Source of the DNA: a virus
Taxonomy: Duplodnaviria > Caudoviricetes
IMG/VR virus record: IMGVR_UViG_3300025723_000013
Direction: 5' to 3' (one strand)
DNA: 64,000 bases
The notes beneath the pieces were generated by a model. It saw only the letters and a list, made by a program, of their open reading frames with translations, ran no database searches and was not told the origin of the DNA. A program made the translations under genes and the position numbers. This document shows positions 5,535 through 9,089 of the stretch, piece by piece (within the stretch, counting starts at the first letter, position 1; every line of letters begins with the position of its first letter).

Positions 5535-5784
5535 TTTTTTTCCTTTCTTTGATTTTTCTACGTTCAACTATTCTCTGTCTTTTTTCTTCTAGCATTTTGG
5601 TTCTAGTAATGGTACAATTTCTTCTCATTTCTGCAACTAATTTTTTAAGTCGTTTCATTACCTTGGTAATGCTTTCGGAATTATAATAATTTGGTCTTCT
5701 AATAAATCTTAAATGAGCATTGTGATACTCGGCTAAAAGATCAATAAATTCTTTATGTAATTCTATGTACTTGTTTATCATCAT
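5476..5784 (-). CDS. Hypothetical basic protein
   Basis: 102-aa ORF coupled to the gp46 stop by ATGA overlap; Lys/Arg-rich. Confidence 0.6.
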   Translation of the reverse strand: MMINKYIELHKEFIDLLAEYHNAHLRFIRRPNYYNSESITKVMKRLKKLVAEMRRNCTITRTKMLEEKRQRIVERRKIKERKKNENTNINTNADINPGINNN

Positions 5785-7772
5785 GCATCAATCCAGTCGG
5801 CTGAATTTGAATAAGATGTAAATCCGGATTCTTTTACCACTCGTAGTACATTGTTTACTCTTCCGATCAATTCCTCTTTGTGTGAAATCAGGAAAATGTT
5901 TTTATTTCTTTCTCTGGCCATCTTTTTTAACACACTTAGCCCTGCTTCAACACCTGCGGAATCCATGCCAGAATCTATCAACTCGTCAATAAACAGCAGA
6001 TTGATGGGTTTATACAAGTTTTCCCAAACATCTCGAAAGGCAAAACTCATGCTCAATATCAGTCTGTTACGTTCGCCTCGTGAAAGATTATCAAAATCTA
6101 GATCTTGACCAAAATTGGTGATTTCAACCGATAAATCATTTTGAAAAACCACCATATGAGGTAATCCCAATTTGTCTATGTAATAGCTTAGTCGTTTGTT
6201 GAGATAATTTAAATTTTGATCGATGATCTTTTTGCGTATAAAACTTTCTTTATTGGTCAGCAGCTTCAATAGGAATTCTTGATGTTCTTTTAAATTGTTT
6301 AATTCGTTGATCTTGTGCCATGCAATTTCCTGCAATGCGGTTTTTTCTAATTCTTCAATTTGTTCCTGATAGGGATTTTCATCCTGTTTTCTGTCAATCA
6401 ATGTTTTCTCTAAAGAGTTAACTTGACTTTTATGATTGAGTGCATCGGCCTGTGTGGGATAAAACACAGTGGGCTTGTTGCCAATCTCGCCCACACCGTG
6501 AATCTGATCCACTACATTTTGCAATGTTTGATACACAGCATCATAATAATCTGTGGCATCTTTTAGATTGTGTTCAGCGTCATGCACCAAGTTGGTATGC
6601 TTGTGATCCTGAAGAGTCTGTTCACACTGAGGACATTTTCGATCCGCCAATGCTGCAATTTCTCTTTGATATTTTTTAACCGACTTGTCCGCCTGTGACA
6701 ATGCAGACTCGTAACTGATTTTTTGTCTGCGTAAATCCGTCAGCTGGTTATTTTTTTCCTGCCACAGAGCGAGGCCGGCATGATCGCTCAATTCCTGTTC
6801 AATGTCAATGGCTTGCAAGGTCACGATGGCATCACTGAGATCTTGTAAATCGGAGGTCTTTTTATTTTCCCATGCGGTACTTTTTAGTATCAAAGAATTG
6901 ATACTGCGTTGCACACTTTCGTTGGCTGTTTTTATGCTTTCAATTTTAATCTGTTCGGTTTGTATAGAATCCTTAGAAGATTTAATCAACAGTTTGAGTG
7001 TTTCGGCCTTTTCACTCAGCAAAGTGATGCCCAGCAGTTGTTCAATCACTTCTCGTTGATCCGCAGCCTTCATGGAAAGAAAAGGTTCGGTATATGTGTT
7101 CAAGGCTACTAGATGTTTGAACATGGTATGACTCATGCCCAACTTGTGTTCTATGAATTTTTGCGTTTCTCTGCTGTCGCCCTGCGCATCATCGTCCTTG
7201 CTTTCATGCTCGTGATTATTGATGAAAACCTTGAGCACGTTTGGTTTTCGACCTCGTTCAATGCGTATAAGTTCGCCGTCATTTTCAAACTCGCCGGTGA
7301 CCAACATGTTCTTGCCGTTGATTTTGTTGATCAAGTTTTCTTTCTTGATATTGGACAACGCCTGCCCAAACCACAGATAGGACAATGAATTAATAATGGT
7401 CGTGTTGTGTGATAATATGCCGTTGGTATAGTATCTGTGATCTGCCGAATCTACTGTGATATCAAACATGTTTTCTGTTCTATCGGACACAGACAGCGAG
7501 GTAACTAGTTCTGGACCATGCTGGGTCTGCACATATGAGCTTGGTTTGATATGCTTGACGAATTTTTCGTTGAGCTTTTCATCAAACAAGATATGATCAT
7601 CTGCGCACTCAAGCATTTTTCCGGATTCTGTTTGAATAGTCCAAACTTGATATGGCACAGTTTTCATTATTTTAGAAATGGGTTTCCACCCAGAATCTGT
7701 TTCTATCTCAAGATTCTGCAAATCCACACTGTCGACAAATTTTCTGTTCACTGTGTCAGAAATTGAATGCAT
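5781..7772 (-). CDS. gp46: gp46/SbcC-Rad50 recombination ATPase, C-terminal gene: intein C-fragment plus C-extein
   Basis: 123-aa intein part ending ILSHN, then TTIINSLSY (completes Walker A GK/T), coiled coil, CPQC zinc hook, LSRGE signature and LLFIDE Walker B. Confidence 0.92.
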   Translation of the reverse strand: MHSISDTVNRKFVDSVDLQNLEIETDSGWKPISKIMKTVPYQVWTIQTESGKMLECADDHILFDEKLNEKFVKHIKPSSYVQTQHGPELVTSLSVSDRTENMFDITVDSADHRYYTNGILSHNTTIINSLSYLWFGQALSNIKKENLINKINGKNMLVTGEFENDGELIRIERGRKPNVLKVFINNHEHESKDDDAQGDSRETQKFIEHKLGMSHTMFKHLVALNTYTEPFLSMKAADQREVIEQLLGITLLSEKAETLKLLIKSSKDSIQTEQIKIESIKTANESVQRSINSLILKSTAWENKKTSDLQDLSDAIVTLQAIDIEQELSDHAGLALWQEKNNQLTDLRRQKISYESALSQADKSVKKYQREIAALADRKCPQCEQTLQDHKHTNLVHDAEHNLKDATDYYDAVYQTLQNVVDQIHGVGEIGNKPTVFYPTQADALNHKSQVNSLEKTLIDRKQDENPYQEQIEELEKTALQEIAWHKINELNNLKEHQEFLLKLLTNKESFIRKKIIDQNLNYLNKRLSYYIDKLGLPHMVVFQNDLSVEITNFGQDLDFDNLSRGERNRLILSMSFAFRDVWENLYKPINLLFIDELIDSGMDSAGVEAGLSVLKKMARERNKNIFLISHKEELIGRVNNVLRVVKESGFTSYSNSADWIDA
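7404..7772 (-). mobile_element. Split intein C-fragment (IntC, 123 aa)
   Basis: Block B-like LECADDH, block F MFDITV, block G YYTNGILSHN followed by Thr+1. Confidence 0.88.
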
Positions 7773-8848
7773 TTTTCTATGGTTCCTGTCTTATCTTTTT
7801 TGAAATCTGATTCCCATACCACTAATACTTCATAGCCTTGATCAAAGGCGACCTTTAATTTTATACGGTCGATCTCCCATCTGTCAATGGCTTTGATTTT
7901 TGTTCTTGGATTTATATGTTCTGATGAATATTTCTTTGGGTTACTGTGCCAAAAATCGCCATTATATTCAATAATTTTTTTGCCAACATTTATGTCATAG
8001 ACATATTGCTTTTTATCTGACTTATTCAATGTGAATTGATGTTCTACTGATGGAAATATTTTCTTTACTTCAGCAAGGATTATTTTTTCAGCAGCAGAGA
8101 CAGTGATTCCTTTTGATAATTTCAATCGATTAATTCTAGCTTTCTCTTCTGGTAATTTAGCACTTAATGTTGCTTGCCACTTATCCTGTCTCGCTTGCCA
8201 AATTGATATTCCGTTTTCTTCTCCATATTTTTGTACACAGATATCTTTGGAAAAATATTTTTGATTCTCTGATACCAGCTCTTTTGCTTCATCAATGGAA
8301 TATCCTCTAGCAGTGTAGTATTCTTCACATCTTTTCGATGTTGCTCTTCGGATATGTTTATCCATCCCAATTTTAGCACCTTTTTTATTATTTTTTTGTT
8401 TGGTATCCGATGCTAACTGTGCGGCATCTATTTCAGAGTAACCCTGTTTGATCCAATACTCTGCTCTAATGGGTCTACGACTATTACGTTCAAAATCTGC
8501 TTCATCTACCGTATAGTTTGTTCCAGTGACTGGATTGATTTTTTCCAACCAAGTTTTGCGACTGTACACACTTTTACAGTTTTTTTGTTTGTTTTCTTTG
8601 GATTTGATGTGAGATTCTGCATCAGTCCATCCTCGAGACAGCCAGTATACTTTGGTATGTTTTGATAGTGTTGTGGTTAGATTCAATTTGCTTCTCAAAA
8701 ACTTTTCAATGATCTTTTTATTATTTTCAATATTAGATTCTAATAGTTCGTGTAGAAGATTCTGATACAGATCAGATTTGAGATTTTTAATAGTATTATT
8801 CAAGATATCTTTGCAGTTATTTTCTAGACTGTTGTTCCAACGCGGCAT
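7748..8848 (-). CDS. Free-standing Vsr/DUF559-like homing endonuclease nested between the split intein halves
   Basis: C-terminal YDINVGKKIIEYNGDFWH...D..K...GYEVLVVWESD, three YW/YYxxxGY/W repeats and KYGEENG. Own GGGAG SD; different frame from both intein halves. Confidence 0.8.
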   Translation of the reverse strand: MPRWNNSLENNCKDILNNTIKNLKSDLYQNLLHELLESNIENNKKIIEKFLRSKLNLTTTLSKHTKVYWLSRGWTDAESHIKSKENKQKNCKSVYSRKTWLEKINPVTGTNYTVDEADFERNSRRPIRAEYWIKQGYSEIDAAQLASDTKQKNNKKGAKIGMDKHIRRATSKRCEEYYTARGYSIDEAKELVSENQKYFSKDICVQKYGEENGISIWQARQDKWQATLSAKLPEEKARINRLKLSKGITVSAAEKIILAEVKKIFPSVEHQFTLNKSDKKQYVYDINVGKKIIEYNGDFWHSNPKKYSSEHINPRTKIKAIDRWEIDRIKLKVAFDQGYEVLVVWESDFKKDKTGTIEKCIQFLTQ

Positions 8849-9089
8849 TGTATAATTCTCCCATGGTCAGTTGGGTTATTTCACCAGTTACAGTGTTCCT
8901 AACCTTTACTAATGTATTTATACAAACACACTTGCCAGTGCCATTCCTGCTGCCGGTATCGTCGCCGCCTAGATCGAGATTGGCACCCAGCACCAAGGTC
9001 AGCATTTCTTTGCTGAAATCCACAGCCTGAGTCTGTTGACCCACGCTCATAAAATTCTTTACAGTCAAATTTTTGATTTTCAAGGTCAT
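8817..9089 (-). CDS. gp46: gp46 N-terminal gene: 53-aa N-extein plus intein N-fragment
   Basis: LKIKNLTVKNFMSVG...GSRNGTGK is the SbcC/gp46 N-terminus; follows gp47 with ATGA overlap. Confidence 0.9.
   Translation of the reverse strand: MTLKIKNLTVKNFMSVGQQTQAVDFSKEMLTLVLGANLDLGGDDTGSRNGTGKCVCINTLVKVRNTVTGEITQLTMGELYNAALEQQSRK
8820..8930 (-). mobile_element. Split intein N-fragment (IntN, 37 aa)
   Basis: CVCINTLVKVRNTVTGEITQLTMGELY... starts with Cys1 immediately after Walker A GTGK and ends at a stop codon. Confidence 0.85.
8915..8922 (-). promoter_or_regulatory. Perfect TATAAATA late promoter embedded in IntN, upstream of the nested endonuclease
   Basis: Codons TGT ATA AAT ACA spell TATAAATA, ending 67 nt before ATG 8848. 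Confidence 0.55.

Follow-up and report, generated by a model that had tools for sequence, protein, structure and literature searches.

A phage gp46 (Rad50/SbcC) gene fractured within its Walker A motif by a putative trans-splicing split intein and a Vsr-like endonuclease gene

Results

The window analysed here, a 64,000-nucleotide stretch of DNA from a large uncultured phage, carries on its minus strand a gp46 gene in two pieces with a third gene between them (all features below are on this strand). Directly upstream of the N-terminal piece lies gp47 (9086..10099), which encodes the Mre11/SbcD-type nuclease subunit (phrog_100, 7e-61; Pfam Metallophos, 5e-6) and whose stop codon overlaps the start codon of the gp46 N-half in the sequence ATGA. 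The N-half (ORF 8817-9089) encodes 90 aa: a 53-aa gp46 N-extein (8931..9089) ending in the first part of the Walker A motif (NGTGK), and then 37 aa, CVCINT...SRK, and a stop, which form an intein N-fragment (IntN, 8817..8930) with Cys1 and block A only. The C-half (ORF 5781-7772) encodes 663 aa, consisting of a 123-aa intein C-fragment (IntC, 7404..7772) with blocks B (ADDH), F (MFDITV...DH) and G (SHN), and of a 540-aa C-extein with its stop codon (5781..7403), which begins TTIINS, the remainder of Walker A. The whole gap between the halves is filled by an ORF for a free-standing homing endonuclease of 366 aa (7748..8848; phrog_22677, 4e-18), which shares 32 nt with the N-half and 25 nt with the C-half. 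Because this ORF fills the gap and overlaps both gp46 halves, and with all three ORFs on one strand, the locus is what Dassa et al. (2009) call a 'fractured gene'. The initial annotation, a two-gene description, had both halves right in every number (a 53-aa extein ending GTGK, a 37-aa IntN, a 123-aa IntC and an extein beginning TT), and overlooked the third gene between them.

That annotation had also read the host gene as gp46, an assignment borne out by a PHROG profile search (phrog_77, 4e-87), by the CPQC zinc hook, LSRGE signature and LLFIDE Walker B motifs read in the C-half, and by the adjoining gp47. With the coiled coil and H-loop that the C-extein also holds, the locus shows the ABC-type head split by a coiled coil, the CxxC zinc hook and the SbcD-type partner of a gp46/Rad50/SbcC ATPase; the C-extein is 48% identical to the gp46 homolog of phage PA5oct, and a Pfam SMC_N match stayed below its cut-off (28 against 40 bits). 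The N-half matches phrog_77 positions 294-333 and the C-half resumes at its residue 124 with positions 334-953, so that the junction is exact, position 333 being followed by 334 across the break. Among the 80 closest gp46 relatives, 79 are uninterrupted and read GTGKTT or GVGKTA at the break point. Removing the intein thus restores the host protein exactly, and the exteins add up to 593 aa (53 + 540), within the 592-606 aa of the uninterrupted relatives' frames, measured from stop to stop.

The interrupting segments carry the catalytic set, namely Cys1, the block B His, the block F Asp and His, the terminal His-Asn and Thr+1. The Cys directly follows GTGK, and the pattern GxGK-Cys plus 32-39 aa was found in all 120 of the 120 homologs listed; the C-terminal end reads MFDITVDSADH...GILSHN-TT (hyphens mark the splice junctions here and below). 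The proposed Thr+1 nucleophile agrees with the clade, in which Thr (95) or Ser (51) at +1 is the rule among 150 representatives. Block B, ADDH, fits less clearly, having its His but Ala in place of the Thr usual in most inteins, and this form is common to the whole terminase (TerL) clade, including the one-piece TerL inteins of isolated phages. IntC matched Pfam Intein_splicing at 1e-5, below the curated cut-off (25.7 against 35.8 bits); its best match of solved structure was the engineered atypical split intein Cat (6DSL_B, 3e-6), and it also matched gp41-1 and VidaL. The N-terminus of the one-piece TerL intein in phage Ag3 gave an ungapped alignment with IntN that begins at the GK-C junction (E 3e-5). 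When IntN alone was compared with the PDB by phmmer, the sole match was the repeat protein Crov588, which we judged spurious. The split parts block A from block B, which makes IntN short and IntC long; the initial reading had rightly placed the intein between the Walker A residues K and T, and block B outside the N-fragment. By its sequence, then, the element is a class-1 mini-intein with Cys1/Thr+1, split at the site known from AceL-TerL and GOS-TerL, and trans-splicing almost certainly joins the two proteins.

Other phages have one-piece alleles of this gp46 intein, P0395 and P0495. P0395 (749 aa), present on 15 contigs in several samples, has an intein composed of the equivalent of IntN codons 1-28, then NHRK, then IntC, the latter 80.5% identical to that of the window. 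Only these 28 codons (8847-8930) are common to the window's IntN and the one-piece allele; the last nine codons of IntN run into the endonuclease cassette. We used P0395 as a stand-in for the window's split pair in assessing the fold, and it was predicted to form a HINT fold (pLDDT 92.8) whose top matches in the PDB were nearly all inteins, the best being VidaL (1.6e-10). In the model the junction lies in a loop, and the break falls in the loop after the intein's first helix. By nucleotide alignment and BLAST against L158, the segment absent from the one-piece allele at loci L158 and L159 is 1062 nt long, a multiple of three, and corresponds to 7785..8846 of the window. The one-piece allele retains the last 11 codons and the stop codon of the endonuclease gene in another frame, which suggests that it originated from a split ancestor by deletion.

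Assigning the endonuclease to a fold required structural re-alignment, since weaker searches gave little: phmmer against the PDB returned nothing useful, a profile search reached Vsr only at E 0.35, and whole-protein Foldseek matches were weak. The predicted structure (pLDDT 87) has a helical N-terminal region with repeated YW..RGW-type motifs and a C-terminal Vsr-like (EDxHD-type) nuclease domain. Residues 247-366 aligned to Vsr (1CW0) with a Z score of 11.3 and an rmsd of 2.9 over 112 residues, and to I-Bth0305I (3R3P) with a Z score of 10.9 over 93/97 residues. In a motif alignment to Vsr, His301 pairs with the His of the Vsr FWH motif and Glu294 with a Phe of Vsr, and D285, E294, D298, H301 and E346 are invariant in 22 endonuclease homologs. 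On the predicted model, the protein has a Vsr-like fold with conserved catalytic residues; some members of its 191 homolog clusters have been named Vsr by JGI.

The sequence TATAAATA (8915..8922), a T4 late-promoter consensus, lies within IntN codons 3-6, 67 nt upstream of the endonuclease ATG, and is kept in 10 of 13 loci while nearby synonymous sites vary. It is one of only two copies in the 64 kb, where 9.4 are expected. The endonuclease may be transcribed late from this box; the reading is a weak one, since so rare a sequence is perhaps not the late consensus of this phage. Dassa et al. reported a hairpin masking the endonuclease ribosome-binding site (PMC2677866). Here a local hairpin over that site folded no better than shuffled sequences (z 0.83), and in the alignment fold TTGTATAA paired with TTATACAA over 8 bp, a long-range contact that is weak (-1.1 kcal/mol) and supported by a single compensatory change, so a hairpin hiding the site is unproven. 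A sigma-70-like promoter in the 3' end of the endonuclease gene (7887-7858, 11/12 matches) was not conserved at other loci and was dropped as a general feature. IntC has a conserved ATG of its own, with a Shine-Dalgarno-like AGGA inside the 3' end of the endonuclease gene.

The arrangement is abundant in metagenomes, not rare. Public data hold 671 clusters of the N-half, 405 of the C-half and the 191 of the endonuclease, and 12 further independent IMG/VR viral contigs have the same three-gene order. Of ten loci in which the overlaps were measured, all have the one of 25 nt and seven have the one of 32 nt. A megablast search with the locus found no match among 50,697 phage records, a collection from which the window's own genome records may be absent. 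Median dN/dS over ten loci was 0.17 for both IntN and the endonuclease, 0.19 for IntC and 0.09 for the N-extein, rough values given a dS near saturation (about 1.9), to which we also attribute the lack of valid pairs for the C-extein. These ratios point to purifying selection on both intein halves and on the endonuclease.

Loci L158 and L160 have IntC sequences that are 97.6% identical, against 49% for gp47 and 49% for the C-extein, a discordance that indicates recent transfer of the intein between phages. The same intein clade occurs at GK-T/S in terminase, DnaB-like and ClpX-like ATPases, and IntC has relatives in 320 records of isolated phages; of these, Kuja and Ag3 were examined, and both have a one-piece TerL intein at RQSGK-C...SHN-TT. 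The intein tree, built on 123 columns, resolves few forks and settles neither in what order the intein changed hosts nor whether the inteins of gp46 share one origin.

Discussion

We consider it highly likely that the locus is a gp46 gene fractured by a trans-splicing split intein together with a Vsr-like homing endonuclease. The mobile element would be a class-1 mini-intein plus a free-standing Vsr-like endonuclease gene, placed between the Walker A Lys and Thr. With the endonuclease cassette occupying the loop that follows the first intein helix, the 37-aa IntN (28-aa core) and the 123-aa IntC would be expressed separately, associate after translation into a HINT fold and splice by formation of a thioester at Cys1, attack by Thr+1 and cyclisation of Asn123. 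The 593-aa gp46 so produced would have its GTGKTT P-loop intact and go on to act with gp47. The endonuclease, for its part, would cut intein-less or endonuclease-less gp46 alleles at co-infection, so that the element spreads.

The same genes could also yield a working protein with no new peptide bond, the gp46 pieces assembling non-covalently and the intein segments serving as mere interaction domains. Such a case is Aeh1 NrdA, split by mobE: a ribonucleotide reductase in fragments is described (PMC3045599) as assembling via interaction domains derived from the mobile element, and Dassa et al. list an SbcD-like gene fractured by a Vsr-like ORF without any intein (PMC2677866). In gp46, however, the break lies between the K and T of the P-loop, and non-covalent assembly would leave 160 foreign residues in the nucleotide-binding loop. 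It would also sit badly with the conservation of Cys1, His, Asp, His-Asn and Thr/Ser+1 over hundreds of clusters and with purifying selection on both halves, and we regard it as improbable. Removal or bypass of the endonuclease segment at the RNA or translation level, by a group I intron or by bypassing, with a one-piece precursor then splicing in cis, would suit a cassette divisible by three, and Vsr-like endonucleases do occur in group I introns, as with I-Bth0305I in recA (PMC3239194). An intron core would nevertheless have no space, as the endonuclease ORF spans the entire interval and runs into both halves; a search of 5500-9400 against Rfam at E up to 1 returned no intron and a single chance-level match; and the start codon and Shine-Dalgarno-like sequence of IntC speak for its separate translation. 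This route is very unlikely.

Decay would be a different kind of explanation, in which gp46 is no longer functional, the intein has ceased to splice and the host's SbcCD or some other pathway serves the phage instead. A related locus (L083) does have a truncated C-half. Against this, ten loci show intact exteins and intein halves with purifying selection acting on them, and the SbcC/SbcD pair has been described as practically universal in jumbo phages (PMC7824862); the chance that the window's locus is a decaying one is accordingly very small. The initial annotation had named an assembly error as a danger to its reading, with the locus really being one contiguous intein-containing gene, and the existence of one-piece alleles lends that thought some substance. 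The three ORFs and their overlaps nevertheless recur in hundreds of independent assemblies, the 12 further contigs among them, and the endonuclease is complete, conserved and predicted to be well folded. An artefact of assembly or sequencing can practically be set aside.

More tentatively, and a little short of an even call, we suggest that the element switches reversibly between one-piece and split forms through gain and loss of the 1062-nt cassette, and that the clade has hopped among the GK-T/S P-loops of unrelated ATPases (terminase, SbcC, DnaB-like helicase and ClpX-like) and continues to pass between phages that are only about 49% identical in the flanking genes. With IntC sequences 97.6% identical, the one-piece and split alleles would provide a clean system for studying the conversion between cis- and trans-splicing by endonuclease insertion, and back.

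With the fractured gp46, the gene for a Rad50/SbcC recombination ATPase joins those phage genes that a split intein and a homing endonuclease maintain in separate parts. If trans-splicing takes place, a core recombination and replication function, presumably essential in this phage, would hinge on a post-translational ligation step. The locus also opens up a large natural family of short-IntN split inteins, with hundreds of variants, a 28-aa core and a Cys1/Thr+1 pair. Such inteins are prized for protein semisynthesis with synthetic peptides, and to our knowledge few have been characterised so far.

The layout itself has been known in kind since 2009, and it is the gp46 host gene that is new in the literature searched, where we found no description of an intein insertion in gp46, Rad50 or SbcC. 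As in the loci of Dassa et al. (PMC2677866), a DNA-metabolism gene is divided into two ORFs, each with half of a split intein, with a Vsr-like endonuclease gene between them whose 3' end overlaps the start of IntC (by 25 nt here, 6-69 bp there); the TATAAATA box likewise recalls the late-promoter boxes found upstream of their endonuclease genes. Those loci, in contrast, comprise eight host enzyme types, with gp46, Rad50 and SbcC absent from the text, and the canonical split site is used by nearly all of their inteins, whose IntN measures 88-105 aa; their terminase IntC of 122 aa comes close to the 123 aa seen here. The intein instead resembles GOS-TerL, AceL-TerL and their consensus Cat (6DSL), in which IntN is likewise short and confined to block A while blocks B, F and G all fall in a long IntC. 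The GOS-TerL IntN is also 37 aa long and can be trimmed to 27 (PMC11766414), against a 28-aa core here. The hosts differ, terminase there and gp46/SbcC here, so that this is a relative of the TerL inteins and not an allele of them, and so do the catalytic pairs: Cys1/Thr+1 here, Ser1/Cys+1 in GOS-TerL and Cys1/Cys+1 in AceL-TerL (PMC11766414).

The one-piece TerL mini-inteins of Ackermannviridae and related phages, Kuja and Ag3 included, belong to the same clade, with 40-45% identity to IntC, the same P-loop position (GK-C...SHN-TT) and the same ADDH block B, whereas those of Kuja and Ag3 are contiguous, have no accompanying endonuclease gene and reside in a different ATPase. I-Bth0305I, the prototype of the EDxHD family, has, like the endonuclease, a DNA-binding region at the N-terminus and a Vsr-like nuclease domain at the C-terminus (PMC3239194), at a sequence similarity too low for phmmer; it is encoded in a group I intron in recA, whereas the window's gene is free-standing inside a split intein. 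Beyond the host gene, what the gp46 locus adds to these systems is a natural one-piece allele differing by a 1062-nt cassette, the discordance between IntC and the exteins, and a clade residing at GK-T/S of several ATPases.

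Gene layout and the exact break in gp46

Four genes lie in a row on the minus strand of the window: gp47 (9086-10099), which has SbcD PHROG and Pfam Metallophos matches, followed by translated ORFs of 90 aa (8817-9089), 366 aa (7748-8848) and 663 aa (5781-7772). The stop of gp47 overlaps the start of gp46, and a putative gp55-like ORF, read from the translation, adjoins gp47. The 90-aa ORF encodes 53 aa of the gp46 N-terminus (the N-extein) up to NGTGK, then a Cys-first 37-aa N-terminal intein fragment (IntN; CVCINT...SRK) and a stop. The first 123 aa of the 663-aa ORF form the C-terminal intein fragment (IntC), with intein blocks B (ADDH), F (MFDITV...DH) and G (SHN), after which TTIINS opens 540 aa of gp46 (the C-extein), where a CPQC zinc hook, LSRGE signature, LLFIDE Walker B and H-loop can be read in the translation. 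On the PHROG SbcC profile, the N-half covers up to position 333 and the C-half picks up at 334, which is its residue 124. Translation and profile bear out every number observed in the initial annotation (53-aa extein, 37-aa IntN, 123-aa IntC), but its two-gene picture left out the 366-aa ORF, which occupies the entire interval between the halves and extends into both, with 32 nt common to the N-half and 25 nt to the C-half. Trans-splicing of the gp46 halves is predicted from these sequences.

The nearest isolated relatives of this gp46 belong to jumbo myoviruses, led by Pseudomonas phage PA5oct (48%) and followed by Sinorhizobium phage Phosso and Agrobacterium phage Atu_ph07, and contigs with an identical N-half reach up to 284 kb, so the phage carrying the split gene is probably a jumbo phage. 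Just downstream of gp46, two related contigs encode a small Hc1-family (histone H1-like, PF07432) protein (L158:5494-5691 and L160:5501-5704); the corresponding place in the window is taken by a basic ORF of 87 aa, rich in Ala and Lys (5304-5567, minus strand).

The middle gene encodes a Vsr-like protein

The 366-aa ORF matches phrog_22677 (4e-18), and several of its homologues are named "very short patch repair" endonuclease by JGI. An AlphaFold model built with 22 homologues as input (pLDDT 86.9) places residues 247-366 close to both E. coli Vsr (1CW0; Z 11.3, rmsd 2.9, 112 residues) and the catalytic domain of I-Bth0305I (3R3P; Z 10.9, rmsd 2.7, 93/97 residues). Residues D285, E294, D298, H301 and E346 are invariant across the 22 homologues; in a profile alignment, H301 falls opposite the His of the Vsr FWH and E294 opposite a Vsr Phe, in keeping with the "invariant glutamate" assigned to the Vsr Phe62 position by Dassa et al. 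2009 (PMC2677866). Helices make up the N-terminal 245 residues, which also carry repeated YW..RGW-like motifs, an arrangement that fits the EDxHD family order of DNA-binding region first and nuclease last (PMC3239194). On this evidence, the ORF encodes a Vsr-like homing endonuclease of the EDxHD family, with cutting activity predicted.

The motif TATAAATA, the T4 late-promoter consensus, lies at 8915-8922, within IntN codons 3-6 and 67 nt upstream of the endonuclease ATG. The 64 kb hold only two copies, the second at 13771-13778 (+), against 9.4 +/- 2.9 expected from shuffles, so this genome apparently avoids the motif. The box in IntN, a candidate late promoter for the endonuclease, is retained in 10 of 13 loci though neighbouring synonymous sites vary, and the same box was reported upstream of fractured-gene endonucleases by Dassa et al. 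2009 (PMC2677866). The endonuclease ATG is preceded by GGAG and the IntC ATG by a GAGGA- or AGGA-type sequence. A sigma-70-like near-consensus (TTGACA, 18 nt, TAAAAT; 11/12 matches) at 7858-7887 (-), in the endonuclease 3' end, has the IntC start about 86 nt downstream and is partly common to one other locus (L093) only. Neither a local fold nor an alignment fold gave a convincing regulatory hairpin at the locus.

Recurrence and conservation of the split arrangement

Of the 80 IMG/VR loci whose gp46 is closest to this one, 79 have an unbroken gene, with GTGKTT (or GVGKTA) spanning the break point, and the remaining locus (L001) shares the three-ORF layout; scanning again with the N-half as seed added 11 three-ORF loci. 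The order N-half, Vsr-like ORF, IntC-C-half holds in every such locus whose contig extends far enough, with overlapping frames (25-nt overlap in 10/10 measured loci, 32-nt overlap in 7/10). Counted as 90%-identity clusters in a 5.8-billion-protein collection, the N-half is found in 671 (typically 87-92 aa), the IntC-C-half in 405 (mostly 657-668 aa) and the endonuclease in 191 (mostly 350-370 aa). In all 120 N-halves among the matches listed, GxGK leads into a Cys with 32-39 residues after it. Pairwise dN/dS, compared across ten loci, has a median of 0.09 in the N-extein, 0.17 in both the middle ORF and the non-overlapping part of IntN, and 0.19 in IntC; with dS near saturation, these values are rough. 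The split arrangement is real, widespread and almost certainly functional.

Some loci depart from the usual form. At L083:5815-7705, the C-half frame stops after 314 aa and goes on in another frame (352-aa ORF), the result of a frameshift, of decay or of an error in sequencing. Some C-halves with the same N-terminal IntC run 55-120 aa beyond the usual 660 aa (718 and 781 aa in P0429-P0443; 764-770 aa in P0454, P0458, P0464 and P0498), which could reflect additional sequence inserted in the C-extein; in P0458, the SHN motif recurs at residue 446.

A one-piece allele and mobility of the element

Among the C-half homologues, the 749-aa protein P0395 is a complete gp46 whose IntN residues 1-28 lead directly into NHRK-MHQLS... 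and the rest of a 155-aa mini-intein. Fifteen contigs from several samples carry it, with gp55-gp47-gp46 synteny unchanged; another one-piece form, P0495, is more distant. The mini-intein is 80.5% identical to the window IntC, and its model has a confident HINT fold (pLDDT 92.8; best PDB match the VidaL atypical intein, 1.6e-10, TM 0.84), with the split/cassette junction in the unstructured loop that follows the first helix. Nucleotide alignment with this allele (contig L158) shows that the window carries an extra 1062-nt segment, the endonuclease cassette, at 7785-8846; the endonuclease ORF extends beyond it by 37 nt at the low-coordinate end and 2 nt at the high-coordinate end. Because one cassette edge falls inside IntN, the last 9 of its 37 residues are read-through into the cassette, which probably leaves a functional IntN core of 28 aa. 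GOS-TerL offers a parallel: its IntN, also 37 aa long, can be shortened to 27 (PMC11766414). In the endonuclease frame, the L158 sequence still contains TIEKCINFLTQ-stop, the region of the last helix of the nuclease domain. This stretch hints, though it does not prove, that a deletion in a split ancestor gave rise to the one-piece form. Two genes 3' of the one-piece gp46, a SegE-like GIY-YIG endonuclease gene (L158:5789-6214) is another free-standing homing-type nuclease nearby.

The sequences carry a clear sign of recent transfer of the intein element between phages. The one-piece L158 and the split L160 (P0396) share 49% protein identity in gp47, 49% in the gp46 C-extein, 67% in the N-extein and 97.6% in IntC; a 461-nt tract, 92.9% identical at the DNA level, begins precisely at the cassette's right edge and extends about 80 nt into the C-extein. 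The window compares with both at 78-80% in IntC and 51-64% in the exteins. In the intein tree, the window falls within a supported clade of six gp46 inteins (SH-aLRT 96) and P0395 is sister to P0396 (support 98), with deeper forks lacking resolution.

Relatives of the intein in other P-loop genes

In solved structures, IntC best matches the IntC chain of Cat (6DSL_B, 3e-6), an engineered consensus atypical split intein, followed by gp41-1 and VidaL. Relatives at 40-45% identity occur in 320 isolated-phage records, and all 30 among the matches listed lie in terminase genes or unnamed ORFs. In the records of Vibrio phage Kuja and Shigella phage Ag3, a single ORF encodes the terminase together with an unbroken mini-intein at RQSGK|C...SHN|TT, the same P-loop place as in the window gp46; IntN aligns gaplessly from GK|C with the first 28 residues of the Ag3 intein (E 3e-5) and IntC with the remainder.

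An exhaustive phmmer search with IntC against 1.84 billion representatives returned 936 matches. Within the best 150 of these, the match lies at the extreme N-terminus in 118, so those proteins are atypically split; the +1 residue is Thr in 95 and Ser in 51, and, two truncated matches aside, the intein ends directly before a Thr/Ser (one Cys) opening the C-extein, a residue that directly follows GK in the two cases inspected over their full length. By C-extein, these 150 hosts include 118 terminases, about 10 DnaB-like helicases, about 6 ClpX-like AAA+ proteins and 5 SbcC/gp46 proteins, the last rising to 15 once gp46-type C-half homologues are added. The N-terminal IntC also sits directly before the P-loop Thr/Ser in DnaB-like helicases (P0312, P0355, P0383) and ClpX-like (AAA_2 + ClpB_D2-small) ATPases (P0367, P0376, P0309), some with a second intein further downstream.

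Alternative explanations and comparison with known systems

Removal of the endonuclease segment at the RNA level is unlikely, since the endonuclease ORF fills the interval, an Rfam search finds no intron and IntC has its own start. The gp46 pieces might instead assemble non-covalently without splicing, for which Aeh1 NrdA offers a precedent (PMC3045599); the P-loop would then stay interrupted, however, and the conserved splicing residues would be left without explanation. That the locus is decaying, or is an artefact, is contradicted by the conservation data. Protein trans-splicing remains our preferred, predicted reading.

The layout is that of the "fractured gene" of Dassa et al. 2009, whose hosts were of eight enzyme types and who noted a single atypical split, in a terminase, where IntC has 122 aa (PMC2677866). 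Their text does not mention gp46, Rad50 or SbcC, and our literature search for an intein with any of these names found no description of a gp46 insertion. What the present locus adds is a natural pair of split and one-piece alleles, together with the clear sign of recent transfer.
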